The translations under genes and the position numbers were made by a program. From the IMG/VR virus record IMGVR_UViG_3300037419_001302, positions 1 through 51,229 of that record: 51,229 nucleotides of DNA; one strand, given 5' to 3'. Positions 1 to 51,229 of this stretch are shown here, piece by piece; the stretch's first letter is position 1; each line of letters opens with the position of its first letter. The notes below the pieces were generated by a model that was not told the DNA's origin, did not search any database, and worked only from the letters and a program-made list of their open reading frames with translations. The DNA comes from a virus (lineage: Duplodnaviria; Caudoviricetes).

Positions 1-127
1 CTCGCAACGTTCCGCGTTTTACCGCAGACCGGCGTAAGGCTTGGGAATGGCGAGAATGCTAGATAACTAGCGGTTTTCCTGGTGCCGTCGAGTGGAATCG
101 AACCACCGACCCCGTCCTTACCAAGGC
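1..127. repeat. Terminal direct repeat, identical to 51103-51229; likely circular-assembly overlap
   Basis: Exact 127-bp identity of both ends; 127 is a common assembler k-mer size. Confidence 0.95.
80..126 (-). other. attP: attP core: 3' half of tRNA-Thr(GGT)
   Basis: Minus strand reads CCTT-GGT-AAGGACGGGGTCGGTGGTTCGATTCCACTCGACGGCACCA (anticodon loop, T arm, acceptor strand, CCA). The 5' half is absent. It lies about 30 bp from the integrase stop. Confidence 0.9.
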
Positions 128-155
128 TGTAAATACCACGTATTCCCGCCATTTT

Positions 156-1130
156 CTACCGCACCCCTACCTTTTTCCCTACTCGCGCCAGATTTTCGCG
201 CACCGCTTTCACTTCCGCCGCTTGGTAGCGGGCCGATGACTTCATATCGGCGTGACCTAGGGCCTCCTGTATTAGCCTTTGGGAGGCCCCAGCGGAGGCC
301 AACCACGTTCCCAGGCTGTGACGGGCCATGTGAGGCGTAAAACGCACCCTCGATTCTCTAATGGTCGGTGCGAGGGCTTTGTATGCGGCCCACCGATTCG
401 CCCACGGGAAAACCTTTCCCTCATCCATCCCCTGTGTCTTCAATTCCGCAACCACGCGGGCGTCCAGAACGAACTCCCTCCACTGCTGGGTCTTTCCGAT
501 CCAGACCTTCCCCACGCCGCGCTTCAGATCCAGGTATTTGCCCTCGACGCTTAGGGCTTCGCTAATTCGGTTCCCCTGAAAGAATAGCCACAACAGCAGG
601 AGGCGGGGTTTGCCGCTTGCGGCCTTCAATAGCTTGGCGGCGTCGGCTTCCTTGAGCGAGCGCGTGACTGGCTTGGGCTCGCGGTACTTCGCAAACCTCC
701 GGTACGGGCACCACTCATTCTCCGCCGCGTAATGCAGCACGGCGGCCGCGGGAACGATGATGTTCCTGTTCTTTGAACTATTTTGGTAGCCGGGGCACAG
801 CTTGTTGGCGGCCTCGGTCAGGTCGTCCTGCCGTATCTCGTCTACCGGGCGCTGGCCTATCGTAGCTTTCAGCGCGTTCAATCGGCGTAGGTCGTCTGTG
901 CCGGGATCGAAGCGGGCGATATAGCGGTCAACCGCCTCCCCGAAGGTCAGTCGGTTTGTGGCTTGCCCTGAGGCTCGGATTCGGGCTTCGGCGTCGGCCT
1001 TAATCCTTTGAGCAGCGACCTTGTCTCTCGTGCGCGTTGAAATCTCGTAGTAGCGCCCATTGATCTTCCCAAGGGCGAGATAGAATTTGTTGTTCTTCCG
1101 CTTGCCGGGGGCGACGAGCTTGAGCGACAT
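156..1130 (-). CDS. int: Tyrosine recombinase / phage integrase
   Basis: Catalytic R (GNRISEAL), HxxR (HMARH), LGH and Y (SARY); adjacent to attP; start placed at MSLKL. Confidence 0.95.
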   Translation of the reverse strand: MSLKLVAPGKRKNNKFYLALGKINGRYYEISTRTRDKVAAQRIKADAEARIRASGQATNRLTFGEAVDRYIARFDPGTDDLRRLNALKATIGQRPVDEIRQDDLTEAANKLCPGYQNSSKNRNIIVPAAAVLHYAAENEWCPYRRFAKYREPKPVTRSLKEADAAKLLKAASGKPRLLLLWLFFQGNRISEALSVEGKYLDLKRGVGKVWIGKTQQWREFVLDARVVAELKTQGMDEGKVFPWANRWAAYKALAPTIRESRVRFTPHMARHSLGTWLASAGASQRLIQEALGHADMKSSARYQAAEVKAVRENLARVGKKVGVR

Positions 1131-1297
1131 ACTATGGCTTCCTGAACCTCTTGAACCTGTGCAGGACTGAAATAGAGTTTGCACCCCGGCGCCGCCTGAT
1201 AGCCCAAACGGGACAAAAGAGCCCGAAGCTGGCGCTCTTTGATAGGCACCATGCCGAGCAATTCAGCGAAGGTAATAATTTTCCGGGCGGCAGTCAT
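947..1297 (-). CDS. Putative excisionase (winged-helix N-terminus), overlapping the 5' end of int
   Basis: Position immediately upstream of int; basic HTH-like N-terminal ~55 aa. Confidence 0.6.
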   Translation of the reverse strand: MTAARKIITFAELLGMVPIKERQLRALLSRLGYQAAPGCKLYFSPAQVQEVQEAIVCRSSSSPPASGRTTNSISPLGRSMGATTRFQRARETRSLLKGLRPTPKPESEPQGKPQTD

Positions 1298-1312
1298 TCC
1301 TAGTCTCAGGTG

Positions 1313-3031
1313 TTAGAAAAGATCATCGGATGCACGCAATTCGCCACGGCCTTCGATCAGTTCGAGGGTCCGAAGGCGGGATAGTGCGTTGTTGAATCCT
1401 CCGCCGTTCGCCTCATAGCCAGCGGCGGCCGCGAGCGATGTTTTATCCATCGGCTCCGGGTAGGCTCCCGCGAGCGCCTCAAGGATCAGGCGTGGGGCCT
1501 TGTCGAGCTGCCGGAGCCAGTGGGCGAGGAGATCGGGTCCGGTCGGCAACGGCTCATAGGAGCCGAGCGCCGACAGACCGGCCTCCGTGATCCGCAGCGG
1601 ATCGCCGCGACCCTCAAGCCAGCCCTTAGTGCGCAGCGAAGAAAGGGCATTGTTGAAGCCGCCGCCGTTGATCGCGTAGCCGGTGAGGATCGCCACTTGG
1701 CGCTTGCTGCGACCGCCCGGGTATTGCGCGAGCGCAGAGAGGATTTTCCGCTCGGCTGCCGACATTTTCTCGCCGTCTCCGGTGGGGATGGCGCGAACGG
1801 CAGGACTCAAACCTGCGGCCTTCGGGTTCGGAACCCGATGCTCTATCCGCTGAGCTACGTCCGCTGACTTCCTGGCGGCGGGGTGGTCGCTGATCGTTCG
1901 GTTAGACCAGCCCTTTGTGATCCCCGCTATGTGCGCCGCAATGTCGGACTCAAGACCATGAAGGTCGGTTGCAGCAATGCTCCATGCGTCGAACCGGCCT
2001 TGCGCATATCCGTCACGATAGCCACGAGTTTCGGCTTCGCGCAGCAACGCGGTATCGGGCGTGGCGGTCGGCGCCGCTGCCAACTGCCGCTTCAATCCGG
2101 CAATCTCGGCTTTCAGAGCCTTCGGATCGTTGGCTTTGGCCTCGGTCTCGACTGTGGCGAGGCGTTCCTTCAGCGCGCCGAGATCGAGTGGCGCGAGGCT
2201 GCCGGATGATGCCTTCTTCTCTCCACGCTTCGGCGTGCGCGATGAGTCGAAGGTGCGCTTGAGCGGGAAATCGGCCGTCGCAAGAACGCCCCGAGCCGGC
2301 ACCCACACCACGCCTTGCCCGCGCTGCATCGTCGGCAGCGAGCCGAGGATGGTGCGGCCCTGCGTGCGGTCGGCCTGCCCTTCGATCCAGCTTCCCAATG
2401 CATCGCGGTCTTGCGAGGACGTGAGCTTGAACGCCACCAGCCCGTCAACTTGACTCAGAACGTCTTTCGAGACGACGGCGGGCCGCTGGGTGATCAGCCA
2501 GGGAATGAAACCCTTCACCCGCCCGCGGCGCACGACGGTCTCCATCATGCCCAGCAACCGGGCGGCGTCGCCGTCCTTGTCCATGAGCTTTTGGGGCGCC
2601 CACATATCGGCCTCGTCGAACACCACATGCACGGGCTCGCCGGTCGCGTTCCGATAAAGGGCGGTTAGGAATGCCAGCATAAACCGGCGCTCCGCCGCCT
2701 TGGTGCCGAGATCGGAGAGATCGACGATGCAGCTTTCTGCCATGCCCGCGACGGTCTCGCCGATGAGAGCTCCGGCGTGCTCGTTCAGCGGCAGATCGCC
2801 ATGAGGACCGCCGAAGATCGGCAGCCGGTAGGGTGACGGGGTTTTGCCGTCCGGCATAAGCCGCAGGCCCCACCACACCCCCAGCGGATCGGGGATCACG
2901 ACGCGGGCCTTCTTGTCCAGCAGGCGTTCGACTGCGGAGCCGGAGTTGTAGGTTTTGCCGCTGCCCGCCGTCCCGACAAAGCCGAGCCGATCGTCAAGCG
3001 CCGCGTCTGGAATCGGATGTGTCACGTTCAC
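1313..3031 (-). CDS. HerA/FtsK-like ATPase (DUF87-type) with two C-terminal winged-helix-like repeats
   Basis: Walker A GTAGSGKT, Walker B VVFDEAD, RRGR, ITQRP; duplicated C-terminal motif GYxxNGGGFNNALSxLR. Confidence 0.85.
   Translation of the reverse strand: MNVTHPIPDAALDDRLGFVGTAGSGKTYNSGSAVERLLDKKARVVIPDPLGVWWGLRLMPDGKTPSPYRLPIFGGPHGDLPLNEHAGALIGETVAGMAESCIVDLSDLGTKAAERRFMLAFLTALYRNATGEPVHVVFDEADMWAPQKLMDKDGDAARLLGMMETVVRRGRVKGFIPWLITQRPAVVSKDVLSQVDGLVAFKLTSSQDRDALGSWIEGQADRTQGRTILGSLPTMQRGQGVVWVPARGVLATADFPLKRTFDSSRTPKRGEKKASSGSLAPLDLGALKERLATVETEAKANDPKALKAEIAGLKRQLAAAPTATPDTALLREAETRGYRDGYAQGRFDAWSIAATDLHGLESDIAAHIAGITKGWSNRTISDHPAARKSADVAQRIEHRVPNPKAAGLSPAVRAIPTGDGEKMSAAERKILSALAQYPGGRSKRQVAILTGYAINGGGFNNALSSLRTKGWLEGRGDPLRITEAGLSALGSYEPLPTGPDLLAHWLRQLDKAPRLILEALAGAYPEPMDKTSLAAAAGYEANGGGFNNALSRLRTLELIEGRGELRASDDLF
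1789..1864 (-). tRNA. tRNA-Arg(CCG)-like cloverleaf embedded in frame in the ATPase CDS
   Basis: GCGGACG TA GCTC AGCGGATA GAGC A TCGGG TT-CCG-AA CCCGA AGGCC GCAGG TTTGAGT CCTGC CGTTCGC G CCA; 76 nt, all four stems pair, C56 is T. Confidence 0.85.
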
Positions 3032-3198
3032 TCCTTCACTACTGGGACAGACACAAGGCCAGCGGTGCGGAGGTAGGCGCGGATTCCCGCGTCGATCATT
3101 GCGGCGGCAGTATCGCGGCGCACATGGCCCGTGACAGCCGTGATCGCCGCGTCAATCGCCAATTCTCGCGCCCTCTCATCCAGTTCCACCTCATCCAT
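3028..3198 (-). CDS. Small hypothetical protein (56 aa, MDEVELDERARELAIDAA...)
   Basis: Translated by hand, below the ORF-track cutoff; stop overlaps the ATPase start. Confidence 0.65.
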   Translation of the reverse strand: MDEVELDERARELAIDAAITAVTGHVRRDTAAAMIDAGIRAYLRTAGLVSVPVVKE

Positions 3199-3272
3199 GG
3201 TCAGTCCCTGTTAAGCCGTTGAACGTTTTTCCTGCCGTGCACAATTCCGGCGAAAACTTAAAGCCCTCCACC

Positions 3273-3536
3273 TCAGCCATGATCAGCTCCCTCCTTGGGT
3301 TTGTGCTCGCCGCACCATTCGCATCGGTAAAAGATCGCGCCGTTCGGCTCAATAGGTCCAATGCGCCGCACCCAGTGCCGATTGAAGCGGTGGATCAGGC
3401 GCATGTGATGCCGGTAGATGAAGCGGCAATAGAAATAGAGATGAATGGGCCGCCAAAGCCGCTGGGCAATTCGTCGGAGTTTCCAGCGCACAGGCTCACG
3501 CCAGTTTGGATCAATCTGCGCGCACGTCTCACCCAT
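3273..3536 (-). CDS. Hypothetical protein with C-terminal CxxC
   Basis: GGAGG-type RBS; overlaps neighbours in the leftward operon. Confidence 0.6.
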   Translation of the reverse strand: MGETCAQIDPNWREPVRWKLRRIAQRLWRPIHLYFYCRFIYRHHMRLIHRFNRHWVRRIGPIEPNGAIFYRCEWCGEHKPKEGADHG

Positions 3537-3873
3537 TCCCGCCCTCCTGTGGTGTGATGGCGGCGAACGCCAGCTTGCGGAATTGGTCAACGTATTCGTC
3601 CCACAGGCCCTTGCGGACGAGGAAGTCATCGACCGAGTTAACGCGACCGAGCAGCCTCTCGATCTCCCGGCGCGCTTCGTCGCGCTCCCGTTCGGCGGCT
3701 TCGGCGCGGGTCATCAGGTGATCCATAGAATCACGCATTTCGGCCGCGTAGGTGCGATGCGAGGCATAAGATTCGGACAGTTTCGCTTCCAGCTCTGCCA
3801 CACGGGCGGTGAGCCGGGTGAGTTCGGCAGCGGCTTCCTTGGGGTTTTCGTAGCACCACATCCAGTCGCTCAT
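3529..3873 (-). CDS. Hypothetical coiled-coil protein
   Basis: ATGA coupling; heptad-like pattern. Confidence 0.7.
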   Translation of the reverse strand: MSDWMWCYENPKEAAAELTRLTARVAELEAKLSESYASHRTYAAEMRDSMDHLMTRAEAAERERDEARREIERLLGRVNSVDDFLVRKGLWDEYVDQFRKLAFAAITPQEGGNG

Positions 3874-4208
3874 TTTGTCGTCTCCCTGGAGGCGGGGAGG
3901 GCGCGGACTTTTTCAACACGGTCGTTCAGCATCTTGCTGACCTCTGCGGTGACAAGAAAACGTGCGGCCCCATTTTCCGTTTTTATGCGCTCTCCGTTGA
4001 CAACGAAGGCGTGTGACTCCAGGTCAGACGGCGCGACGAAGATTTCGACCGCAGCCGAACGCATCTCCGTAGCGCCGCGCTCGTAGGCTTCGCGGAGGGC
4101 TTGGGCCACGGCCTGAATCATCGGGGCTCGATGCTCGCTCGATCCAATCGGCCGGGTGAGTTGGATGGCGAGGTCCAGGTCCCACGTCAGCGTTTCATCC
4201 TGGCTCAC
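3870..4208 (-). CDS. Hypothetical protein
   Basis: 4-bp stop/start overlaps on both sides. Confidence 0.7.
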   Translation of the reverse strand: MSQDETLTWDLDLAIQLTRPIGSSEHRAPMIQAVAQALREAYERGATEMRSAAVEIFVAPSDLESHAFVVNGERIKTENGAARFLVTAEVSKMLNDRVEKVRALPASRETTK

Positions 4209-4459
4209 TTCTTCCTCCGTGGCTTCGGTGCGGGGGTGACGGGCTCGGCCGTCTCATTCAGAAGATCAACGGGCAGCGCGTGATAGAGAAAGACAAACCG
4301 GCGTGCATCGCAGCGATAGTTCCGCCGGGCGCCCTCGCTGATCTCCTCCCAATATTTCGCCTTGGTCGTCTCGGGCCGGGGCGATTGAAACCCGAGCCAA
4401 CAAATCTCGCGGGCGATCTTCTCGACCGGATCGCGCACAGCTTTCACCTTCCCGGCCAT
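4205..4459 (-). CDS. Hypothetical protein
   Basis: Operon position, RBS-like sequence. Confidence 0.7.
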   Translation of the reverse strand: MAGKVKAVRDPVEKIAREICWLGFQSPRPETTKAKYWEEISEGARRNYRCDARRFVFLYHALPVDLLNETAEPVTPAPKPRRKK

Positions 4460-4528
4460 TTACCTGTCCTCACGTTCTGATGGAGCGGCGGGGAGTAGTA
4501 AGCTACCTCGCAACGATAGGCTGCCATG

Positions 4529-5062
4529 CTAGTCCTCCCGTTGTGCCGGGGCGGCGGGAACTCGGATCGGGATGAAGAACACGCCCGCGCAATGATTCGG
4601 CCGCCGTGAGTAGTTCGGCGGGATCACGCTCTGCTTAATCTCGCCGCTCCACTGGTGGTACTCCCATGCGAGCTTGCCTTCCCATTCTCGCGGCGCGACC
4701 TCGGCTGCAACCCACCCCTCCGGCACCGGGCGTGAGAGGGCGCGGCGCAGGGCTATCTGTTTATCGCGAGTCGCGATTGCAGCCTCGGCATGTTCCATGT
4801 GGGCTGGGCCGGTGAACTCATCCCAATCGTTGCCTGCGGCGCGACATATGGCCCGAGCCACTTCTTCGACATCACTCACAAGCGCGGGCGTCGCCCGGAG
4901 CGCGCGGTAGGCTTTCAAATTCTCCGCCGCGCGGGCGATAATCTCGTCGTGGTCGCCGGGGCCACAGTGCTCTTGGATGGAACGTAGTAGAGGAAGCACG
5001 GCATCGAGTGACGCCGCGATCCGTTCCGCCAGCACCAGCACGTCGGCATCGTTGGTGGTCAT
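4529..5062 (-). CDS. Hypothetical protein
   Basis: Coupled to upstream gene; typical phage accessory segments (VEEVARAIC, PVPEGW). Confidence 0.7.
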   Translation of the reverse strand: MTTNDADVLVLAERIAASLDAVLPLLRSIQEHCGPGDHDEIIARAAENLKAYRALRATPALVSDVEEVARAICRAAGNDWDEFTGPAHMEHAEAAIATRDKQIALRRALSRPVPEGWVAAEVAPREWEGKLAWEYHQWSGEIKQSVIPPNYSRRPNHCAGVFFIPIRVPAAPAQRED

Positions 5063-5298
5063 GCGATCATCCTCAGCTTTTGCGGTCGGGGCGGGTCTTG
5101 CGGTCCGGGTGGTTTCGGCCTCGCTTCCACCATGGAGAGATAGACCCGCACGGCCTCATTCCTGGCCGCGGCGACTTCAACGACGCTGAAACTGTCGGGC
5201 CACTTCGTTCCGTCCTCGACGCGCACGAGCCGTTGCGCTCCGGCGTCGATCATCTCCTCGGTCGGATAATCTGGCATCAGCAGGCGGTTGGTGGTCAT
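5059..5298 (-). CDS. Hypothetical protein (PTEEMIDAG motif)
   Basis: ATGA coupling; start at MTTNRLL. Confidence 0.7.
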   Translation of the reverse strand: MTTNRLLMPDYPTEEMIDAGAQRLVRVEDGTKWPDSFSVVEVAAARNEAVRVYLSMVEARPKPPGPQDPPRPQKLRMIA

Positions 5299-5477
5299 GG
5301 CTGCTCCTTGGCCATCATGTCGGTGATGGGAAGAACAAGGCCCGGTATGGCGGCCCGCGCACGTTCTGGCGCGACGTGAGAGCAGCCCTCGTTTCCCCCG
5401 CATATCGGGCACGGCAGCCACGGATAGCCGGGGAGTGCCTTCAAGGTGGCGATCTGCGTTCCGAGGGTTTCCATCAC
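5295..5477 (-). CDS. Small putative Zn-binding protein
   Basis: CPICGGNEGCSH; coupled to both neighbours. Confidence 0.65.
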   Translation of the reverse strand: MMETLGTQIATLKALPGYPWLPCPICGGNEGCSHVAPERARAAIPGLVLPITDMMAKEQP

Positions 5478-7216
5478 CGCTCCCCCTTCGCTGGCGACGA
5501 GAGGGCGGCGATCCTCTCGAAGCGCCCGTCGAAGAACTCAGCCTCCGGGCGAACCCAAATGGTGCCGTCCTTCTCGGCCTCGTAGATCACTACGGGGGCC
5601 AGGGACCATTCGAGCTTGCCGTGTGCGACCACCTTGTAGGTGCCTCCGCTCTTTACATGCCTGTACCGATGCGCGGGCTCCCCCGTCCCCGTCGAGGGGA
5701 GGGCGGCAGCAAGGTCGCGGATCAGGTCGGCAACCTCGTCGCAAATCGGCGGGTGATACTTGAGCGCCGGAGGGCCGTCCGGGTTGTGAGCCGTTATTAC
5801 TAGCGCCCGCATCGCGCCCTCACCCTTCTCCGCCCGCTCCCGCAGCGCCGCTATGTCCGGCGAGGGGGTGCGTGCTGGGGTCGCAGCCTCTGCTTGAGCC
5901 TGGACTGCCGCTACCGTCGCGCACGACTTGCAGCGCCACGCTCTTTTGTCGCCGTCGAACTTCTCGCCGCAATCATTGCAATGGACCCAGTAGCCGCCCG
6001 GCGCGTATCCGAAGTTTCGGAGGGCAATGGGTTTCCCCGCCCTCGTCTCGTCCGTCTGCGCCTTGCTGGCATCCGGTACAGGGGAGGAGGGGGCCGTCTG
6101 CGCCGATGGCGCGGCACGCCACGGCAAATCACGCGGCCCAGTCTCCACTTTCGAGTATGGGAAATCTGCCGAATGCTGGACCGGCAGATCGTAGAAGCGC
6201 ATGCCGGGCTTCAGCAGGATGGCGTCTGTCGGGCGCAAATACTCATCATTTACATGATCTGGCGAGACTTCCCTGTACCATGTGCGGCAGTCCATCGGCC
6301 TTTCCGTGGCGCAGGCCATGTCGATAGCTGACATGGTGACGCTGGGCGGAAGCTTGTCGTGTCCGTTCTGCTTGTACCAATCCCGCACGTCATAGGGCTT
6401 GTCGTTGATCCAAATGATGAATGGTTCCCCGTCCGTCTGCGCGGATGGCGCTACCGGCATCCCCTCTAACATGTTCCGAACCATCGCCTCGGCCTGTCCC
6501 GCGTCGAACAGATTGGTTCCGACCGGCCAATCGTGATCCGCCGGCGCATGGAGGAAATTGGGGCGCCGGTAACTAATCCCGTTGTCTGGGTGCCATGGTT
6601 TTGGCAATCGCCAGCAGAGGAAGCGATCGACCATGTGCTTGATTTGAGCGTCGGTCAGTGCGGCGCTGGCTGCCTTCGGTTCTGAGGTCATGGCTGTGTC
6701 CGGTGCTGTGGTGGGAGAGCCGCCGCATTTGGGGCAGACGATCGGGTGTACACGCGCCCATTGAACCCGCTCGACATCGGCGGCGTGGCCGTGTGTCTCA
6801 AGCGTTGTCGGCGCTGATATTTTTCCTGTCCCGCCGCAAACAGAGCAGCGCATCTCCCCCGCCCTCGTCTCGTCCGTCTGCGCCTTGCTGGCATCCGGTA
6901 CAGGGGAGGAGGGTGGGCGGGCCTCTGCATAAGCCGCTTCTTGGAAGTCGCTGGCGATCTCATGCACCGCATCGGTGGCCTCTTTCCAGCCCCGGTAATA
7001 GTCGCCGCGCTTGCCGTCGCTGTCCCAATTCGACGCATCGCAGAACGACAACAGCCGGTTGACGATTTCACTGGCCAGCCCCGCCATCGCCTCGGCGTGC
7101 CTCTCCAGCTCTCGGGCGTAGCGGGCGAGCGGGTTTGTCCCCATGCTTTCGCGCAGCGCGACATCGACGCCCCGCCGCGCCTCTCGCACTTCTTCCGGTG
7201 TCATCGGGGCGCTCAT
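5474..7216 (-). CDS. Mosaic multidomain protein: Zn ribbons, ubiquitin-like domain, C-terminal DUF1653-like SH3-fold domain
   Basis: CSVCGGTG/CPKCGG and CNDC/CKSC; C-terminal YRHVKSGGTYKVV..VVIYEA..IWVRPEAEFFDGRF; repeated linkers. Confidence 0.8.
   Translation of the reverse strand: MSAPMTPEEVREARRGVDVALRESMGTNPLARYARELERHAEAMAGLASEIVNRLLSFCDASNWDSDGKRGDYYRGWKEATDAVHEIASDFQEAAYAEARPPSSPVPDASKAQTDETRAGEMRCSVCGGTGKISAPTTLETHGHAADVERVQWARVHPIVCPKCGGSPTTAPDTAMTSEPKAASAALTDAQIKHMVDRFLCWRLPKPWHPDNGISYRRPNFLHAPADHDWPVGTNLFDAGQAEAMVRNMLEGMPVAPSAQTDGEPFIIWINDKPYDVRDWYKQNGHDKLPPSVTMSAIDMACATERPMDCRTWYREVSPDHVNDEYLRPTDAILLKPGMRFYDLPVQHSADFPYSKVETGPRDLPWRAAPSAQTAPSSPVPDASKAQTDETRAGKPIALRNFGYAPGGYWVHCNDCGEKFDGDKRAWRCKSCATVAAVQAQAEAATPARTPSPDIAALRERAEKGEGAMRALVITAHNPDGPPALKYHPPICDEVADLIRDLAAALPSTGTGEPAHRYRHVKSGGTYKVVAHGKLEWSLAPVVIYEAEKDGTIWVRPEAEFFDGRFERIAALSSPAKGER
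6035..6091. repeat. 57-bp direct repeat, copy 1 (encodes PSSPVPDASKAQTDETRAG)
   Basis: Identical to 6857-6913. Confidence 0.95.
6857..6913. repeat. 57-bp direct repeat, copy 2
   Basis: Identical to 6035-6091. Confidence 0.95.
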
Positions 7217-7644
7217 CGGTGGGACTCCCGAGCCTTGAGGGCGGCGAGGGTGAGAGCGAGTGGGCCCGTTGGCGCGGTTGCCTGCCAGCGTCCATCAAAG
7301 GTGCCGTGCCAAATCTGCCCGTTCTCGTCTTTGTGAGTAGCGGCGATCGTGGCGCGAGCATTGCCGGGCCAGATTGAAAAGCCGTCGAGAATGCACCCCT
7401 CCGGCACGAGCGTAAGAGCCGCGTCGAGGCTGGTGGTATAGTGGGGCGCTTCGGGAATTGCTGGCTCGGGACCGAACGTCGGGTCTTTGACGACGCTCAG
7501 CCATTCGCTGAGGTTCCATTCGCCAATCCCGACGTAAGCAGCAATCCACGAATCAAGGTGGCGGCTCCCCTCCATCGCCCGTTCCAGCCGTTCTATCAGT
7601 GAGTCCATAGGGGCTTCCGGTGTCATGGCCTTATCGGTGGTCAT
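7213..7644 (-). CDS. Phage ABA-sandwich-like protein
   Basis: PHYTTSLDAALTLVP and C-terminal ATAPTGPLALTLAALKA pattern. Confidence 0.6.
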   Translation of the reverse strand: MTTDKAMTPEAPMDSLIERLERAMEGSRHLDSWIAAYVGIGEWNLSEWLSVVKDPTFGPEPAIPEAPHYTTSLDAALTLVPEGCILDGFSIWPGNARATIAATHKDENGQIWHGTFDGRWQATAPTGPLALTLAALKARESHR

Positions 7645-8006
7645 CGGGCGTGGCTACGAGCTTGGTTCTTTTCCGCCTTCATGCGGTGCGGAGACCGCTT
7701 CCAGAGGTCGTCGACGATGGCGCGGAGTCGGATGCCGTACTTGCGCTCGAAGGCCGCTTCTCCGATCCGGTGCTGTTCGTCATGTGCGGATTCGTATCCG
7801 GGGTAGGCGAAGCAATCGGACGGCTTCACCCCCATCCCACCGTCCGTTCCGGTACGGACGTGGCAGGCCTCGATCTTGCCGCGGCAGGTGTGCTGGTCGG
7901 CGATGACGCAGTCAAAGCCGCGGACGAACTTGAGATGCCTCGGCGAGCGGAGTTGCGGCGCCGTGCGCAGACCAAGCTTCGGCGCTTTGCGGCGACGGAG
8001 GATCAT
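7641..8006 (-). CDS. DUF968 / HNH-like putative nuclease
   Basis: RSPRHLKFVR..C..C..EACHVR..GGMGVKPSD..HDEQH. Confidence 0.75.
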   Translation of the reverse strand: MILRRRKAPKLGLRTAPQLRSPRHLKFVRGFDCVIADQHTCRGKIEACHVRTGTDGGMGVKPSDCFAYPGYESAHDEQHRIGEAAFERKYGIRLRAIVDDLWKRSPHRMKAEKNQARSHAR

Positions 8007-8512
8007 GCGGCGCTCGCTTTGCTCAAGGTCGCGGCATCCGTCCCGATGAGTTGGGACACGACGTCAAGAACCCTCTGCTTGCTCTCGTTAAACTCTGTCT
8101 TGCCCATGGCGCGGACGCTTTGGGACTTCGCGGTGTAAACCGTGACCGTCGCCCCCGTGACGACCACGAAGGCGTAATCGTCGAGAGGCTCGATGAAGGC
8201 GGCCATCCGCTTCGCTTCTTCGGGCGAGGCGCAGGCGATCGAACGTTCATCCCGATAGCCCGCGCGGATCAGGGCGTATTTCCGTAGGTGATCCGGGGTC
8301 GCGAGCTTCTCGGCCAGCCCTTCGGGAAGGTTGGCGTGAGCCTCGGCGATCGCTGCAAAAAAGTGGCGATGGGATGCGCCGGAGCGCTCCTCGCGGATCT
8401 CCATCCGGTAGACCTGGCCGCAGACGAACTGCCGGTCGGCAGCCTTCGGGATCAAGGGGCGCATGGATTCCCCATCCCAGGTGAATGAGAGGGCGTGGAG
8501 CGCTTCGGCCAT
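8003..8512 (-). CDS. NinB/YbcN-like recombination accessory protein
   Basis: ERSxxSHxHFFA and KSQSxRAMxKxEF motifs; directly downstream of bet. Confidence 0.55.
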   Translation of the reverse strand: MAEALHALSFTWDGESMRPLIPKAADRQFVCGQVYRMEIREERSGASHRHFFAAIAEAHANLPEGLAEKLATPDHLRKYALIRAGYRDERSIACASPEEAKRMAAFIEPLDDYAFVVVTGATVTVYTAKSQSVRAMGKTEFNESKQRVLDVVSQLIGTDAATLSKASAA

Positions 8513-8514
8513 GG

Positions 8515-9576
8515 CTATTTGCGCACCGCCTTCTTGAGGGCATCGCGCCGCTTGGCGACGGCGGCTTCCCAGCGCTCAAGTAACGCAGCCGGGAGATACC
8601 CGATGCGCTCGGCATTGGCCTCGATCACCTCCTCGATGTCGGTGTCCGCCTGCGTGACCGAAAGCTGTTCGGTGAGGTCGTCGAGAACGGCCTCCCAATC
8701 GCCAACGGTCTCAGCTGCAGCGCCGGAGTCCTGCGCCTCGCCCTCGATCGTCGCGGCTTCGGCCGGCGCCGGCTCGACGTCGGTGACTTGGCTGGCCTCG
8801 GTTCGGAACTGCTCGCGCGTCGGGCGCGTCGGCGGATCGGCAGGATGGCCACCCATTGTGTTCGCCGGCGTCACGTCGACGATCCGTCCTTCCATTTCCT
8901 CGGCCGTCGGTTCATCCCCGAGCTCCTCCGGGAACGCCCGACGCAGGGCAGCCGCCTCAGCGACCTTCTCGATCATGTAATGGGGCGAGCGCTCCCACTT
9001 CTCGTTCGGGAGATCGGAGCGGCCGCGACGCCCGTAGTTGGCGAGCCAGTAGACCTTGGGACCGACGAACGCGACCCGATGGCCGAGGACGATCTTGTAG
9101 ACCGTCACCCGCGCCCACTCGGGGAAGGTGACTGTGACGCTCTTTTCCTCCCAGCCGTCCTTGCTCTTCACCCGGCCGGTGAAGGCCTGCTCCTGCTCGG
9201 GGCCGAACTCGGTTGCATCACATCCGGCATAGCGGCCGGTGCGGGTCGCCGTGGCGCGGTGCTCGCCGATGCCGGGCCACACGCCCTCGACCTCACGGCC
9301 GAGTTGGGAGTTCCACACCGGCACGATGTGGACCATCTTCTTGAACGGGTCGAGGTTGCGCGCCTTGCAGTAGGAGAGGGCGAGCACGACGGCGTCGACC
9401 GACTTGGCGGCCGGGAACACCGCATCCACGAGAGCGGGCCACTGCGTCTTGCTGACCCCGAATTTCTCCTCGATCGCCGGATGGAAGGGCAGTCGGGGCG
9501 GCTGGAACACCGCCACCTCGCCTTGGGATTGCGCCGCCTTCGCTGGCGTTTGAGCCTTGGTCTGCGCCTGAGCCAT
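8515..9576 (-). CDS. bet: RecT / Red-beta single-strand annealing protein
   Basis: YCKARNLDPFKKMVHIVP, R..A..TGRYAG, W...P..MIEKVAEAAALRRAFP. Confidence 0.9.
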   Translation of the reverse strand: MAQAQTKAQTPAKAAQSQGEVAVFQPPRLPFHPAIEEKFGVSKTQWPALVDAVFPAAKSVDAVVLALSYCKARNLDPFKKMVHIVPVWNSQLGREVEGVWPGIGEHRATATRTGRYAGCDATEFGPEQEQAFTGRVKSKDGWEEKSVTVTFPEWARVTVYKIVLGHRVAFVGPKVYWLANYGRRGRSDLPNEKWERSPHYMIEKVAEAAALRRAFPEELGDEPTAEEMEGRIVDVTPANTMGGHPADPPTRPTREQFRTEASQVTDVEPAPAEAATIEGEAQDSGAAAETVGDWEAVLDDLTEQLSVTQADTDIEEVIEANAERIGYLPAALLERWEAAVAKRRDALKKAVRK

Positions 9577-9585
9577 GGGTTCCTC

Positions 9586-10362
9586 CTAGCGAACGACGGC
9601 TGTGGTCGATTCGTAGATGTGCGCCCCGGCGAGATCGCGGCCGCCGGCGCGGACAAAACCACGGACCGCCTTGTCGAGATCGGCGGGAGCGAAGTAGGGC
9701 CGGAGCTTCTCGAGATCGAGCACCGCGCGGTCGGTGATCTCGAAAACCCAGGACGTGCGCAGCGAAGAGAGCGCCCCGTAGTCGCCGCGGGTGCGGGAGA
9801 GCTCGGCCGGTTTCGCGGAAGCGGCAGCCGAGGCCTCGATCGCATCGGCCTTGGACTGCTCGGCGGTTTCCTCGATGGCAATCGCATGGGCAAGGGAGTC
9901 GTCGTCCTTGGCCTGCTCGGCGGCTTCGCGGGCCTCGCGTTCCTTGCGGGCGGCCTCCTCGCGCGCGGCGGCTTCGGCGGCCAGACGACGTTGGCGCTCC
10001 TCCTCGGCTTTCTTGCGCTGGTAGGCGGTCAGGCGATCAGTGAGGGCCCGCTTCTTGGCCTCCAGGCCATCGATCACCGCCTTGAAGAAGCCGTCGACGA
10101 CGCGGCCGGCCTCAAGATGGGGTTCCTTCTCGGCGGTGCGGGCGTCGTTCGCGCGCTTGATTGCGGTCGAGAACTGCTTCACGAAGTCGGCCATCTGGCC
10201 GGCGATGTCGTCAGAGTCCACCGCAGCCGGCGCCCGCCCGTAGGCGGCGCTGAGTTCGTCGGCGCGCGCAAGGATAGGCTGGTGACGCTCGGCGAGTTCA
10301 TCGCGCAGTATCTGCACCCGGTTCCCGGAGTTGTGGCCCGCAAGGGCCGCTGAGCCTTCCAT
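9586..10362 (-). CDS. Coiled-coil phage protein upstream of bet
   Basis: N-terminal GHNS, RxxEKEPHL..GRxVD, long charged helix. Confidence 0.8.
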   Translation of the reverse strand: MEGSAALAGHNSGNRVQILRDELAERHQPILARADELSAAYGRAPAAVDSDDIAGQMADFVKQFSTAIKRANDARTAEKEPHLEAGRVVDGFFKAVIDGLEAKKRALTDRLTAYQRKKAEEERQRRLAAEAAAREEAARKEREAREAAEQAKDDDSLAHAIAIEETAEQSKADAIEASAAASAKPAELSRTRGDYGALSSLRTSWVFEITDRAVLDLEKLRPYFAPADLDKAVRGFVRAGGRDLAGAHIYESTTAVVR

Positions 10363-10374
10363 GGTGTTCTCCCG

Positions 10375-10728
10375 TTAGAAGATCGGTTTGGTTTTCATGT
10401 GATCGATGGGACTACGCGGCGATGCTTGAGGTGCATCCGGGTCGTGCTCGACGGCCCATTTGTGATCGGCAAGCAGGAAGCGGTACTCGGACTCCTCGAT
10501 CGGATGGGCGGCGCAGTACGGCCAGACCAAATCGACGTCGATCTCGCGGCCAAGTCTCTCGGCGTGCCACGTCGGCGAGCGGTCGAGTTCCTCGCCGGTC
10601 ACGGGATCCGTCGATGGTGCAAGCCAGATGCGGATTGGCACCCAGGGACCGCCGCGCACCATGCGCGACTTGTAGAAGCCGGCCACCGGCGTGTCGGCAC
10701 TGACCGGCGCCATGCGCTTGCGATTCAC
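10375..10728 (-). CDS. Hypothetical phage protein (GFYKSRMVRGGPWVPIRIW)
   Basis: GTGA coupling; protein-like composition. Confidence 0.75.
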   Translation of the reverse strand: MNRKRMAPVSADTPVAGFYKSRMVRGGPWVPIRIWLAPSTDPVTGEELDRSPTWHAERLGREIDVDLVWPYCAAHPIEESEYRFLLADHKWAVEHDPDAPQASPRSPIDHMKTKPIF

Positions 10729-10973
10729 CGTGCATCGCTCCCGACTTTCTCTGGCGCCTTGATCAGCCCCATCTTTGCTGCCCAATTCCGCCCGAGCTGG
10801 GTGGGCGCGATGCAGACCCTGCGGGGCTCACCGGGCGGATAGGTCACGCGGGCAAGTCCGCGCTGCTGCAGGGAGTTGCCGAAGCGGGCATCGCCGAGCA
10901 GGCGGATTTGCTTGTCGCCGTTGATGATGTCGACCAGGAGCTTCTCGGCGGCGGAAAGGGCTTCGTACTTCAC
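10725..10973 (-). CDS. Hypothetical winged-helix-like protein
   Basis: GTGA coupling; LSAAEKLLVDI..SLQQRGLA..PTQLGR pattern. Confidence 0.6.
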   Translation of the reverse strand: MKYEALSAAEKLLVDIINGDKQIRLLGDARFGNSLQQRGLARVTYPPGEPRRVCIAPTQLGRNWAAKMGLIKAPEKVGSDAR

Positions 10974-11167
10974 GCGGCCACTCCCGGAATGTCTCGCTCG
11001 ACGAAGGTGTCGGGAATGCCGGAGAGATAGCCGCCGTCCAGCAAGCGGACGTCGTAACGCGGCTGGCATTCGATCGTACGGCCGATCAGAACGGCGGCCT
11101 TCCACTCGACAATGTTGCCAGCGGGTATCCCCACCTTCACGGGCGTTAAAAGATCGATCATCTCCAC
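10970..11167 (-). CDS. Small hypothetical beta-rich protein
   Basis: GAGGAG RBS. Confidence 0.65.
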   Translation of the reverse strand: MEMIDLLTPVKVGIPAGNIVEWKAAVLIGRTIECQPRYDVRLLDGGYLSGIPDTFVERDIPGVAA

Positions 11168-11171
11168 CTCC

Positions 11172-11453
11172 TCAGTGAACGACGCGAAGGGCGATGCCGA
11201 GCGCGAGCGCCAAGGCGATCACTAGGGCGGCGCCGATGTTGGCCCGGCGACGGTCGCGCCGCTGTTCACGGATCGCGTCGACGTGCTCGTCCATCTCGTA
11301 GTCGTGCCAGCCGAATTGCCTGAGTCGGCGGCGAAGCTGCTGCTCGGTGAGTCGTCCGGCCACGAAGTCGTCGATGAACTTCTGGTCGCGGGTGAGGACA
11401 GGGGCGTCGGCGAGCATGAAGGGCTCCATCTGGAGGGCGGAGAGTCGCGGCAT
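11172..11453 (-). CDS. Hypothetical protein with C-terminal membrane anchor
   Basis: Hydrophobic tail IGAALVIALALALGIAL. Confidence 0.7.
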   Translation of the reverse strand: MPRLSALQMEPFMLADAPVLTRDQKFIDDFVAGRLTEQQLRRRLRQFGWHDYEMDEHVDAIREQRRDRRRANIGAALVIALALALGIALRVVH

Positions 11454-12064
11454 CAGCCGAGCTCCCGAGCCAAGTTGCCAACGATCTCGGTGGTGATCTC
11501 TCCGACCGGGCGCGCCTCATCGTCGAGGCGCTCGGTGAAATGCTGGTCCGCGTGGACCTTGCCGCAGAAGATCGGCGCATCGGCCGGGGCGACGATGATC
11601 CGGTAGACAGTGGGATCACCCTTGATCCGGGCGCGCGCCTGATGGATGCCGAACAGCCCGTTCGACTGGTGCTGATCGATCATGATGTCGCTGGCCGCGA
11701 CGGCGAGGCCGAGGGTGCGCTTGATCTGGCTGACGATGTAGCCGGGGTAGATCATCATCACCTTCCGGGGCACAGCCGCCGCCTGTTCGGCCTCAAGCCG
11801 CCGCACCTGATCGCGGTAGGTGCGCCACGTCACGCAGAGGTTGTTGCCGTTCTCGGTCAGCCCGTTCCAGTAGGTCGGATGGGCGCGGCGCTCGCGCGCA
11901 ACCCTCCGGGCCTCGGCCTTGAACCAAGCCATGCCCTCGCGGAGCAAAGCGATACGCTCGGAAACGGACGGCGGGTTATCGACCGCCGCACGAGCCGAAG
12001 CCGGGATCGGTCCGTCATAGCGCTGCTCGAGTTCAGCGAGCCTGGAGAGTGATGAAGAGGGCAT
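11453..12064 (-). CDS. Hypothetical protein, first gene of the leftward early operon
   Basis: GGAGG RBS directly downstream of PL/OL. Confidence 0.75.
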   Translation of the reverse strand: MPSSSLSRLAELEQRYDGPIPASARAAVDNPPSVSERIALLREGMAWFKAEARRVARERRAHPTYWNGLTENGNNLCVTWRTYRDQVRRLEAEQAAAVPRKVMMIYPGYIVSQIKRTLGLAVAASDIMIDQHQSNGLFGIHQARARIKGDPTVYRIIVAPADAPIFCGKVHADQHFTERLDDEARPVGEITTEIVGNLARELG

Positions 12065-12084
12065 TGGGGGCCTCCGTCGTTTTC

Positions 12085-12133
12085 GTAAAGCATGCTTTAC
12101 ACCCGGCGGGACCTATCGTCAAGCATGCTTTAC
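12085..12133 (-). promoter_or_regulatory. OL operators and PL promoter
   Basis: Perfect palindrome GTAAAGCATGCTTTAC at 12085-12100 and GTCAAGCATGCTTTAC at 12118-12133; minus-strand TTGACG-N17-TAAAGC overlaps both. Confidence 0.85.
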
Positions 12134-12276
12134 AACGGGAAGGCGGTTTTTCACCCGGCGCAAACCGGTTCTGTCGTTAACCCATTGAAGATTTTTGGCT
12201 AATCAGGAGCCTTTTTCGGCTCTTCTTTTGACCTGAACAGGGTCTTTGCTGCGCGCGGAAGAAATGGCCAGCCGAG

Positions 12277-12558
12277 TTATTGTTCGCGGAGTTTAGCTCG
12301 GATCAGGCTGGCGAGGAGAAACACGAGGCCGGTGACAAGAACACCTCCGAGGAGGCGGCCAGCCACATGGGGGACGGGCATGGAGTAGCCGGGATTGAGA
12401 TGGGCGACGAGCGCGATCATGGCGCCGGCCCAGGCGACCCCGGCACCGATCGCGGCCCAGGCGTTGCGGAGCAGGGCGCCGGCGGCGACGTAGCCAAGCA
12501 TCGTGATCGGGTCGAGGAGCGATGCGGCCATGACGGTGAAAACGATCTCGAGCGTCAC
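12277..12558 (-). CDS. Small membrane protein (about 3 TM) co-transcribed with the repressor
   Basis: GTGA overlap with the cI stop; hydrophobic segments. Confidence 0.75.
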   Translation of the reverse strand: MTLEIVFTVMAASLLDPITMLGYVAAGALLRNAWAAIGAGVAWAGAMIALVAHLNPGYSMPVPHVAGRLLGGVLVTGLVFLLASLIRAKLREQ

Positions 12559-13301
12559 ATTCGCCTCCAGCCGCCGATCACGCGCCCCTGGATATGTGCT
12601 TCTTCAAGGGTGCGCTCGTAAGGATCGTATTCCTTGTTGTCCGAGCTGATCTTGACCCGCGGCGGGTCGGAGTGGGCCACGTACTGCACGCGCTTGAGAA
12701 CTAGGCCGAAGCCGTCGAAGACTACGAAGATCCCCGGCGGCGTCGGCGCTCGGTCTTGCGTATCGACCATGACCTTTTGACCGGGAAATAGGGTCGGCTC
12801 CATCGAGTCCCCGACCACCTCCAAGATGCGAACGCGATCAGGCTCCGCACCATAAAGCTGACGAAAGCCCGCGCTCGGGAATCCGTGTGCTGCGACCGTT
12901 GCTGTGGCTTCATCGGTGTCTTCCACGTCGATCAGCCCTCCGCTTGTCCCCGACCTCGCTCTAACGTCGAGTTCACGGATTAAAACCAAGTCCGCAGCTT
13001 GGTCATGCAGATGACTCACTTCAACCACAGATGATTCGGATTTATCTGATCCTCTCTTCACGTGCGATCCCTTGGTGGTTCCCATGGGGGAACCGCGACC
13101 TGTGGCCAGCCATTGGGGGTCGACGTCGGTGTCGATGGCGATGCCGACAAGGTTGGGGCCGGTCGGCACCGTCTCGTCGGACAGCCATTGCTTTACGGCT
13201 TGCCGCGACACTTTGCGCGCGCGCGCGAGGTCGGCGGGGGTCATATCAGCTTCGCTGATAGCCCACTTGATCCGTTGCCCGAGCGTGAGTTGCTGTTGCA
13301 T
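12555..13301 (-). CDS. cI: CI-like repressor (XRE HTH plus S24 peptidase)
   Basis: HTH PADLARARKVSRQAVKQWLS; VVGDSMEP (Ser) and LVLKRV (Lys); divergent from cro. Confidence 0.95.
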   Translation of the reverse strand: MQQQLTLGQRIKWAISEADMTPADLARARKVSRQAVKQWLSDETVPTGPNLVGIAIDTDVDPQWLATGRGSPMGTTKGSHVKRGSDKSESSVVEVSHLHDQAADLVLIRELDVRARSGTSGGLIDVEDTDEATATVAAHGFPSAGFRQLYGAEPDRVRILEVVGDSMEPTLFPGQKVMVDTQDRAPTPPGIFVVFDGFGLVLKRVQYVAHSDPPRVKISSDNKEYDPYERTLEEAHIQGRVIGGWRRM

Positions 13302-13325
13302 GGGCCGGACTATGGCGACGGCGCT

Positions 13326-13365
13326 GTAAAGCATGCTTGCATTGTCGTAAAGCATGGTTTACAAG
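13326..13365 (+). promoter_or_regulatory. OR operators and PR promoter
   Basis: GTAAAGCATGCTTGCA at 13326-13341 and GTAAAGCATGGTTTAC at 13347-13362 match the OL palindrome; TTGCAT-N17-TACAAG. Confidence 0.85.
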
Positions 13366-13370
13366 GGGGC

Positions 13371-13625
13371 ATGCTCGAAATTGTTCAGCAAGCCGCCGAC
13401 ATCGTGGGCGGCACTCAAAAACTGGCGGATTTGCTGGGTTGCTCGCGCCAAGCGCTCTCCCAGTGGGATGAGGTGCCGCGCGGCCGTGTCCTCGAGATCG
13501 AGGAGGCGACCGGTCGCAAGATCACGCGCCATCAACTCCGCCCTGACCTTTATCCAGAGGCACCGCAGGAGCCCTCCGGCGGCAACGCCGCCGAGCCAAA
13601 CCGCCCACGCGGGAAGGCCGCCTAG
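13371..13625 (+). CDS. cro: Cro-like (YdaS family) regulator
   Basis: GGTQKLADLLGCSRQALSQW..VP..IEEATG..LRPDLY. Confidence 0.9.
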   Translation: MLEIVQQAADIVGGTQKLADLLGCSRQALSQWDEVPRGRVLEIEEATGRKITRHQLRPDLYPEAPQEPSGGNAAEPNRPRGKAA

Positions 13626-13646
13626 CCATGGCGCGCCGGGGGAACA

Positions 13647-13835
13647 TCAGCACGGCCACCAGTCTTCGGGAATCTTCTCCCGCAGGAGCTTGGTCAATTC
13701 GCGGTCGACTTCGACCCGGATCAGTTCTCCATCGTCGACCGCAAAGCAAAACGCTGTGGAGCCGTGGGCGATCCATGATCGCGTGGCTCGGTAGCGGGTC
13801 AGCGCCGGCGCATTCTTCATCGTCTTGGTCCGCAC
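13647..13835 (-). CDS. Small hypothetical protein antisense to the PR operon
   Basis: Fills an otherwise empty gap; protein-like composition. Confidence 0.45.
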   Translation of the reverse strand: MRTKTMKNAPALTRYRATRSWIAHGSTAFCFAVDDGELIRVEVDRELTKLLREKIPEDWWPC

Positions 13836-14076
13836 GTCCGGACCGGGACCGCTTCCTCAACGTTCTCTCCGTCGCTGGCTCGATCCCCGCTGGCCGTGCC
13901 GGAGATACGGGCGGCGAGGGCCATACCCCCAGCCTTCGCCGCTCGCCCCTCTCTAAGCCTCTCCACGAGTCCGGCGGTCACGCTGCCAAGAGTGCGCCAG
14001 GTCGTGTCGTTGTCGTTCATCGCTCTGCTCAAGCTCCGCTTCGTTGCGCCCAGAAGAAAGCGCACGGAGCGATGCA

Positions 14077-14430
14077 ATGTCCTGCAATTCAAATTACCGA
14101 AAAGTGCGGTCAATGAACGCGGCTGTCGCGATCGCGCAACTCGACATGGAAGGCGGCCCGGTGCTGCGGGAGATCGCCCGCCGCGAGCCCGCCAAGGTTG
14201 TCGCGCCGAAGTTCGGGTTCCGCCCGCGCCACGTCTACAACCTGCGCGAAGGCGAGACCGGCATCGGGTGGCAGCACTTCATCCTCGCCGCGCAACAGAC
14301 GCCGGAGCTGCGCGCCTTGGTGGCGAAGTGGCTCGGCTTCGAATCGCCGCTGATGCCGCAGGCCGTCGAGATGCTGCGGCAGATCAAGCAGCTTGCCGCA
14401 TCGTTGCCGGAAGAGGGGGACCAAGCTTGA
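14077..14430 (+). CDS. CII-position HTH-like regulator
   Basis: PAKVVAPKFGFRPRHVYNLREG HTH-like segment; position after cro. Confidence 0.6.
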   Translation: MSCNSNYRKVRSMNAAVAIAQLDMEGGPVLREIARREPAKVVAPKFGFRPRHVYNLREGETGIGWQHFILAAQQTPELRALVAKWLGFESPLMPQAVEMLRQIKQLAASLPEEGDQA

Positions 14431-51102: not shown

Positions 51103-51229
51103 CTCGCAACGTTCCGCGTTTTACCGCAGACCGGCGTAAGGCTTGGGAATGGCGAGAATGCTAGATAACTAGCGGTTTTCCTGGTGCCGTCGAGTGGAAT
51201 CGAACCACCGACCCCGTCCTTACCAAGGC
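51103..51229. repeat. Terminal direct repeat, copy of 1-127
   Basis: Exact identity to the first 127 bp. Confidence 0.95.

Follow-up and report, generated by a model that had tools for sequence, protein, structure and literature searches.

Can one stretch of DNA be a transfer RNA (tRNA) gene and also, on the same strand and in frame, part of the coding sequence of an enzyme? This question is raised by a viral record of 51,229 nucleotides (nt) (Caudoviricetes; IMG/VR record IMGVR_UViG_3300037419_001302), called the window here at its full length, in which a tRNA-Arg(CCG) lies inside a 572-amino-acid (aa) open reading frame (ORF) for an ATPase. In gene finding and curation, a stretch counts either as a tRNA gene or as a protein ORF, and peptides translated from tRNAs are removed as artifacts. 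In this record, tRNA and ORF are each genuine and occupy the same bases on one strand and in one frame, an overlap that recurs within a single phage protein family. An earlier note on this DNA had proposed dual coding. The proposal holds at the DNA level, where a canonical tRNA lies in a conserved single ORF; excision, maturation and charging of the tRNA we infer. From the sequence comparisons below we tentatively favor a working phage tRNA gene that is nested in the ORF and released from the early transcript, a reading that we rate a little short of probable.

The tRNA and the ATPase gene are made up as follows (pLDDT, predicted local distance difference test).

1789–1864, minus strand: tRNA-Arg(CCG), 76 nt including the encoded CCA (ARAGORN; Rfam RF00005)
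1313–3031, minus strand: HerA/FtsK-superfamily ATPase, a single 572-aa ORF (ORF list, homologues, fold)
2267–3031, minus strand: ATPase domain, residues 1–255, with Walker A GTAGSGKT (pLDDT about 90; HerA fold matches)
1784–1912, minus strand: disordered linker, residues 374–416, the sole segment with pLDDT below 50
1331–1759, minus strand: two tandem winged-helix-like domains, residues 425–567 (pLDDT 83–96)

The embedded tRNA and its reading frame

The tRNA is complete, as the earlier note had claimed. ARAGORN reports it as the sole tRNA of the whole window, and RF00005, the sole Rfam family above threshold in the window, matches 1792–1864 (minus strand) over model positions 1–71 of 71 with 70 bits against a gathering score of 29 (E = 2.5e-13). 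All 21 of its 21 stem pairs are standard, one of them being G-U at 4-69. The sequence occurs once in the window at up to three mismatches, and in 0 of 100 shuffles. Nucleotides that are near-universal in tRNAs are U8, A14, G18 G19, T54 T55 C56, A58 and the 3' CCA, and C56 pairs with G19. All of them are present in the window copy apart from C56, which is replaced by T, the deviation already pointed out in the earlier note; the other four embedded tRNAs found in related loci have C at this position. Arginine tRNAs are identified by C35 G36 in the anticodon and by A20 in the D-loop. These features are found here, as the anticodon is ccg (ARAGORN) and the D-loop AGCGGATA has an A after GG in all three embedded Arg copies.

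Misassembly had been named as a way in which the observation could fail. The tRNA is bridged together with both flanks, without a single difference, by contigs of three runs (X2, 1284–3073; X3, 1284–2188; X4, 1733–2269), and two of these runs, X3 and X4, carry no flag as a possible source of the record; misassembly is therefore unlikely. One further contig of run X2 matches the window up to exactly 1864, the 5' end of the tRNA, and then continues with 255 nt that are unlike it and less GC-rich. This contig probably stems from another tRNA-Arg gene of similar sequence that was present in the same soil sample.

The ORF at 1313–3031 reads through the tRNA without a stop codon, and base 1 of the tRNA is a first codon position. 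The tRNA-derived peptide ADVAQRIEHRVPNPKAAGLSPAVRA corresponds to residues 390–414, and the tRNA touches 26 residues (390–415), all of which fall within the predicted disordered segment 374–416. Because the tRNA peptide lies in this single disordered segment, the protein can tolerate it. The AlphaFold2 model (28-sequence alignment; mean pLDDT 82.9) consists of an alpha/beta domain (1–255), long helices (285–375), the disordered segment and the domains at 425–567. These last domains show a repeated helix-helix-helix-strand pattern in the model and an internal repeat, GGGFNNALS.LRT, and the homologues P0045 and P0089 carry precomputed Pfam matches to HTH_Crp_2 and MarR_2. In Foldseek searches the N-terminal domain matched HerA chains (E = 2e-11 to 1e-8, probability 1.00) and the B204 NTPase of STIV2 (template modeling score 0.72, normalized to the target). 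The sequence contains the Walker motifs GTAGSGKT and FDEADMW, and G20, G23, G25 and K26 are invariant in our alignment A1. The Pfam cut-offs for DUF87 and HerA_C were not reached (17.2 bits against 23.2, and 15 against 22); some homologues carry a precomputed PF01935. The N-terminal domain is thus predicted to be a RecA-like HerA/FtsK-superfamily fold with Walker A and B motifs. Together with the residue mapping, these data bear out the assignment of a HerA-like ATPase with the tRNA in the linker before winged-helix domains.

The protein belongs to a large family: a protein-collection search returned 1959 homologues at E ≤ 1e-3 (8000 candidates scored), and the best 120 of these 1959 are 536–628 aa long and, in all but one, cover 97–100% of the query. 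We compared 158 loci (57 viral, 80 genomic, 20 metagenomic, and the window); the loci were not deduplicated, and some of them are one record present in two collections, e.g. L024/L184, L028/L186 and L031/L188. In 80 of the 158, a single frame encodes both the ATPase and the window-type C-terminal part; 38 carry a different long tail, 25 are of a short form, 15 are cut and none is split. Since the tRNA peptide is flanked in frame by two conserved, confidently folded domains (80 loci), the ORF is not spurious. The linker between them is hypervariable in length and sequence and cannot be aligned in A1.

Two further observations concern the architecture of the family. The short gene form (25 loci, L097–L123 and others, mostly from metagenome-assembled genomes (MAGs) of Acetobacteraceae) ends soon after the ATPase domain, without the helical linker and the winged-helix part. 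Several types of C-terminal winged-helix-like module occur in A1 (GGGFNNALS, KRSSRDAY, HKSGTWATYLS and SSTSYTNP). These types do not track ATPase-domain similarity, so the linker looks like a module-shuffling junction.

Recurrence in related loci

The earlier note had asked whether homologous linkers carry tRNAs of other isotypes with compensatory changes. They do: Arg, Gly and Gln tRNAs were found, and four base pairs have changed on both sides. In four further loci the same linker holds a complete, sense-strand, in-frame tRNA, and CCA is encoded in all five embedded tRNAs.

L003: tRNA-Arg(CCG), Rfam 67.7 bits
L086: tRNA-Gly(UCC), 5132–5207, Rfam 70.5 bits
L051: tRNA-Gln(UUG), Rfam 61.8 bits
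L172: tRNA-Arg(UCG), ARAGORN

At the DNA level, embedded tRNAs are thus found in 5 of 118 long-form genes. Peptides of tRNA type occur in 7 of 120 homologous proteins (P0004, P0010, P0022, P0057, P0063, P0070 and P0114), six detected by a strict pattern and one by a loose pattern. As P0114 is the product of the L003 gene, there are 11 distinct tRNA-bearing genes. The frame is such that the anticodon is read as a codon. Among the protein-only cases, in which isotypes were judged from the peptide alone (P0004, P0010, P0022, P0057, P0063 and P0070), four look Gly-UCC-like (…PSK…) and one Arg-UCG-like (…ASN…). A scan of the viral collection for the Arg tRNA body found it in one record alone, G002, which holds L003. 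Isolates of Bradyrhizobium, Afipia and Rhodoplanes harbor prophages of this family, and the gene copies in them are without an embedded tRNA.

Decay of the tRNA in homologues had been expected if the window copy were a relic. A tRNA profile run over 121 ORF tails at E ≤ 1 found the five intact copies alone and no decayed relic. The orientation is also uniform. In the 76-nt tRNAs, four of six frames are free of stop codons, two sense and two antisense; nevertheless, all five DNA-level copies lie in the sense orientation, and all four 76-nt copies use one common frame. Sense orientation is required for co-transcription with the messenger RNA (mRNA).

Five relatives have same-strand tRNAs 160–900 nt upstream of the start codon of the ATPase gene (L062:3757-3833, L079:3767-3843, L085:3261-3336, L181:2282-2357 and L069:3036-3110). 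Their isotypes are Val-UAC, Pro-UGG, Thr-UGU and, twice, Lys-UUU. No homologues of the window were found upstream of these tRNAs in L062, L079, L085, L069 and L181, a result that fits prophage borders and phage genes alike.

Conservation and origin of the cloverleaf

The four 76-nt copies align without gaps, and 83 of their 84 stem cells are paired. This degree of pairing was reached by 2 of 500 shuffles, and slid controls gave 31–46%. The closest comparison is that of the window with L172, its nearest neighbor on the ATPase-domain tree (path 0.59). Between these two tRNAs there are differences at 11 of 76 positions and no insertion or deletion, and the differences comprise two compensatory pairs (4-69 and 5-68) and seven unpaired positions; 11 random substitutions spared all stems in 34 of 20,000 trials. 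The flanks align at only 55 of 90 and 60 of 90 positions, with many indels. Compensatory change proves selection on the phage side only if the copies descend from one insertion, because cellular tRNAs accumulate such change too.

The embedded tRNAs differ in form from the cellular tRNAs of the loci examined. The three embedded Arg copies are 76 nt long, whereas 16 of 17 cellular Arg tRNAs have 77 nt, and the embedded tRNA-Gly(UCC) of L086 is 76 nt long with an 8-nt D-loop, versus 74 nt in all three cellular copies. A cellular 74-nt tRNA-Gly(UCC) would hold an in-frame TAG in that frame. By the known identity rules (acceptor and discriminator for Gly, A20 for Arg), the copies are what their anticodons say: A20 is present in all three Arg copies, and the acceptor and discriminator pattern of L086 is that expected for Gly. 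The first 31 nt of the L086 tRNA-Gly, including the acceptor strand GCGGACG, nearly match the tRNA-Arg of the window, and its T-arm resembles that of cellular tRNA-Gly; no other among 57 distinct tRNAs in the loci examined starts with GCGGACG. The L086 tRNA thus looks chimeric, and the match of its 5' half to the Arg copy hints at isotype remolding within the phage lineage.

The embedded Arg copies are 84–87% identical to one cellular tRNA-Arg(CCG) and 86–87% identical to each other. In a search for a cellular donor, the best match was 86–87% in 401 genomes of the order around Rhodoplanes and 80–86% in five named hosts of the gene family, and across the class 0 of 401 genomes gave a match at E ≤ 1e-18. 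The phage attachment site (attP) fragment, a control that must match the host, was found in 0 of 151 of those genomes and gave one 85% match in 401 genomes of the taxonomic family. As this control was also absent, the host lineage is unsampled, and the failure to find a donor in about 800 genomes is uninformative.

Integration and the attachment site

The embedded tRNA is located near the integration genes, and the earlier note had offered an integration target as one alternative. The features concerned are these.

156–1184, minus strand: tyrosine integrase (Pfam PF00589 Phage_integrase, E = 8.4e-18)
947–1297, minus strand: candidate excisionase ORF (ORF list)
76–126, minus strand: probable attP, the 3' part of a tRNA-Thr(GGU) from the anticodon loop to CCA, repeated at 51178–51228 in the terminal overlap

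The note had placed the tRNA just upstream of xis-int. The integrase gene (int) is confirmed by its Pfam match, and the xis label is not, since the ORF at 947–1297 matched no Pfam and no PHROGs family. As listed, this ORF shares 238 nt with the int ORF, and the starts given for both are provisional. The integrase of the window has no tblastn homologue at E ≤ 1e-3 in 137 other loci. The integration module is mosaic, and the ATPase gene is simply its neighbor.

The Thr(GGU) fragment starts 29 nt past the stop codon of int, on the same strand. It matches a cellular tRNA-Thr(GGT), part of a Tyr-Gly-Thr cluster, with 85% identity over 47 nt. The tRNA-Arg, in contrast, sits 605 nt upstream of the start of int and not directly beside it. 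The ends of the record fall within the sequence shared with the host tRNA gene. Contigs of runs X1 and X3 break inside the Thr fragment, and bin 1–200 is covered 2.5 to 18 times as deeply as the phage, a weak indication. Breaks and raised depth at 76–126 are expected of a sequence shared with a host gene or a junction. In many relatives, too, tRNA 3' fragments that end in CCA are found near the ATPase gene.

Two relatives show the ATPase gene in an integrated context, a status that rests on the host genes beside the tRNA and int. In G001, the MAG that holds L086, the order is PBP2, RodA, tRNA-Lys(CUU), an integrase (PF00589, E = 7e-14), about 4 kb, and the intact ATPase gene with its tRNA-Gly, and phage-like genes extend to at least 93 kb. 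The tRNA-Gly(UCC) of this host lies elsewhere, beside tRNA-Tyr; it is unoccupied and 78% identical to the embedded copy. G002, which IMG/VR classes as a provirus, has the order ATPase gene with tRNA-Arg(CCG), YqaJ exonuclease, RecT, integrase, tRNA-Arg(CCU) and PPK2, and its tRNA-bearing ORF is intact 6.4 kb inside the border. No far-end att repeats were found in the trimmed G002 record or in 20–120 kb of the G001 contig. The ATPase gene is split or interrupted at the linker in none of the 158 loci. By these comparisons the embedded tRNA does not appear to be the integration site of the phage.

Three candidate explanations built on integration were rejected. An attP within the ATPase ORF disagrees with the Thr(GGU) fragment beside int and with the intact gene in the two integrated relatives. 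An immunity system of the integration-dependent type, in which the att core lies in an ORF that is truncated on integration, disagrees with the same intact ORFs. Finally, tRNA-dependent lysogeny does not apply, as the att fragment is Thr(GGU) and reaches CCA and the phage tRNA is Arg(CCG). Since the att fragment runs to CCA, the host tRNA would be rebuilt.

Alternative explanations and a possible mechanism

The evidence so far could also be read in other ways. The embedded tRNA may be a passenger that was captured into a permissive linker, has no function as a tRNA and is kept until deletion, the copies being intact because the captures are recent and losses occur by deletion and not by gradual decay. 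This is the main rival reading, and the earlier note had named a captured tRNA gene absorbed as a linker among its alternatives. This would agree with a linker that is hypervariable and predicted to be disordered, with tRNA-bearing genes that are few and scattered on the tree, with U56 in the window and the C-A mismatch in L003, and with the X2 contig that diverges at the 5' end of the tRNA and suggests that the same soil holds another tRNA-Arg gene of similar sequence, which may be the donor. We nevertheless consider it rather unlikely. No partly decayed copy was found in the 121 tails, five of five copies are in the sense orientation although antisense frames are open, and the embedded Gly tRNA departs from the 74-nt cellular type and has its 5' 31 nt in common with the Arg tRNA of the window. 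As the cellular isoacceptor in G001 is only 78% identical, recent capture from that host does not account for the L086 copy. An integration function, whether as attP, a secondary att site or a landing pad for satellites, is very improbable. It is suggested by the fact that tRNA genes are the usual targets of tyrosine integrases, by the position of the ATPase gene near int and by the CCA-ending fragments in many relatives. In contrast, a classical attP candidate, Thr(GGU), lies elsewhere, and contigs break there and not at the tRNA-Arg, which is bridged in three runs. The genes of G001 and G002 are intact inside, with borders at tRNA-Lys(CUU)/int and int/tRNA-Arg(CCU); none of the 158 loci is split; and integration of the phage itself at this site is contradicted in three testable cases.

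The cloverleaf may instead be a cis-acting processing site with no decoding role, at which cleavage by RNase P tunes the downstream genes (the winged-helix part, xis and int) or destabilizes the ATPase message. Sense orientation and structural conservation fit this explanation equally well, U56 would matter less, and in the window the tRNA lies about 0.6 kb upstream of int. We found no promoter-like site in 1200–3300, which is consistent with read-through transcription, and one terminator-like site against 1.4 expected, in a scan that is weak for such hosts. A processing signal, however, would not need standard sense-reading anticodons, A20 in the Arg copies or the acceptor and discriminator pattern of Gly. 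In G002 the tRNA and int are separated by 5 kb of recombination genes, which shows that linkage to xis-int is not a conserved feature, and an in-frame restart Met after the tRNA is found in the window only. We regard a pure processing site as improbable.

Several points weigh against a working tRNA gene. Carriage is limited to about 4–6% of family members, and the carriers are scattered on the ATPase tree (seven label changes; 92 of 200 shuffles as low); few and scattered carriers indicate that the family can do without the tRNA and that gains or losses are frequent. If the copies share ancestry, their five sense orientations do not count as independent. Common descent is itself at issue: the trio of the window, L172 and P0005 has a Shimodaira–Hasegawa-like approximate likelihood-ratio value of 84 by a quick method with many open forks, and the alignment of the upstream flank is near chance. 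The compensatory changes could predate independent captures and have arisen in cellular donor lineages. U56 is constant across contigs of four runs, and the L003 copy has a C27-A43 mismatch. No RNA runs carrying window positions 1–4000 were listed. The minimum-energy fold in the mRNA context showed the D, anticodon and T hairpins and lacked the acceptor stem (z = −0.52), a result that is uninformative. Finally, excision would come at a cost, since the message for the full-length protein would be lost and a 5' fragment lacking a stop codon would remain.

With these points in mind, the favored reading, a nested and released tRNA, can be put as a mechanism. A leftward early operon would be transcribed through the ATPase gene. 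Transcripts that stay intact and are translated would yield the full-length protein, in which the 26 tRNA-encoded residues act as a spacer. In untranslated transcripts the cloverleaf may fold, be cut by RNase P at 1864 and be trimmed at its 3' end at 1789. The released tRNA, once charged, would read CGG, its only codon. Counted over the phage only, CGG makes up 25% of Arg codons and is the second commonest of them. The benefit may be one such as codon supply or resistance to a defense that targets tRNAs. A broader version, which we put forward as possible but doubtful, is that a lineage of tRNA genes has adapted to life in a coding gene of temperate phages of soil alphaproteobacteria. Functional Arg, Gly and Gln tRNAs would be kept in one linker frame, and the need to be stop-free would shape the 76-nt length and the 8-nt D-loop. 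Each early transcript would then give either the protein or a tRNA and a severed message, coupling the tRNA supply to the ATPase and to the downstream integration genes.

If the tRNA is expressed, compact genomes can house tRNAs in a manner that is new, translation of a single transcript competes inherently with its processing, and the locus offers a naturally occurring sequence constrained both as a cloverleaf and as stop-free coding sequence. If it is not expressed, disordered protein linkers can absorb whole structured-RNA genes. The locus also calls for caution, as a phage tRNA near an integrase need not be an att site.

The phage genome

Positions 1–127 of the window are identical to 51103–51229, as found by a repeat search and an identity check. 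This 127-nt terminal overlap indicates that the record is the free form of the phage, and the sequence is best read as a 51,102-bp circle or a terminally redundant genome. IMG/VR classes the record under 'direct terminal repeats' with a completeness of 100%. Matches of the window proteins to PHROGs show that this circularly assembled phage is temperate, and include a DNA methyltransferase, a head-tail adaptor and a tail protein in addition to the following.

12555–13355: CI-like repressor (PHROGs)
8515–9576: RecT-like annealing protein (PHROGs)
9586–10362: exonuclease (PHROGs)
18599–20149: DnaB-like helicase (PHROGs)

A crude gene map consists of a leftward arm (156–15772) and a rightward arm (16060–50697). 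A 24-nt element with the palindrome TAAAGCATGCTTTA occurs three times (12083–12106, 12116–12139 and 13345–13368; 83–100% identical) and flanks the CI-like repressor gene on both sides. These elements are probable operator sites. An exact 57-nt direct repeat (6035–6091 and 6857–6913) lies within a 580-aa ORF at 5474–7216, which carries a C-terminal DUF1653, and duplicates the peptide PSSPVPDASKAQTDETRAG.

Comparison with known systems

Phage tRNA genes are common. A literature search, which covered few subscription journals and no supplements, found no report of a complete tRNA gene in frame within a phage ORF. Spurious ORFs that translate tRNA genes (AQ..EH...GS.P peptides) are filtered by AntiFam. 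The peptide signature is the same here; in contrast to such ORFs, it is flanked by conserved folded domains in 80 loci. Among ATPases, HerA-NurA, the SIR2-HerA and DUF4297-HerA defense complexes and STIV2 B204 have a fold in common with the window protein over residues of about 1–255, including Walker A and B. Unlike the solved HerA systems, the window protein has a C-terminal coiled region, two winged-helix-like domains and a position among phage early and integration genes.

Maturation of tRNAs from coding transcripts is known from the E. coli tyrU-glyT-thrT-tufB operon and from tRNA punctuation in mitochondria. In both, the tRNAs lie between ORFs, whereas excision here would cut an ORF in two. 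RNAs that are at once structured RNA and mRNA include SgrS/SgrT and RNAIII/hld. These are regulatory small RNAs with small peptides, while the window has a tRNA inside a 572-aa enzyme.

The closest comparisons are with temperate phages in which integration involves tRNA-derived sequence. In the tRNA-dependent lysogeny of mycobacteriophage Fionnbharth, a phage tRNA compensates for the host tRNA destroyed by integration; the phage tRNA has the isotype of the disrupted host tRNA, and the short core does not rebuild the latter (PMC10865867). The window phage resembles Fionnbharth in being temperate, in having a tyrosine integrase directed at a host tRNA gene and in having its own complete tRNA; it differs in that its att fragment is Thr(GGU) up to CCA and its tRNA is Arg(CCG) and in frame in an ORF (PMC10865867). 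In mycobacteriophages of Clusters G, N and P, e.g. BPs, attP, a 35-bp common core, lies in the repressor gene, and integration removes the 3' end of the gene (PMC9262239). The window is like the BPs type of immunity in that a tRNA-derived sequence is translated in a phage ORF close to int. In contrast to that type, it contains a full 76-nt tRNA, the ORF is whole in two integrated relatives, and attP is separate (PMC9262239).

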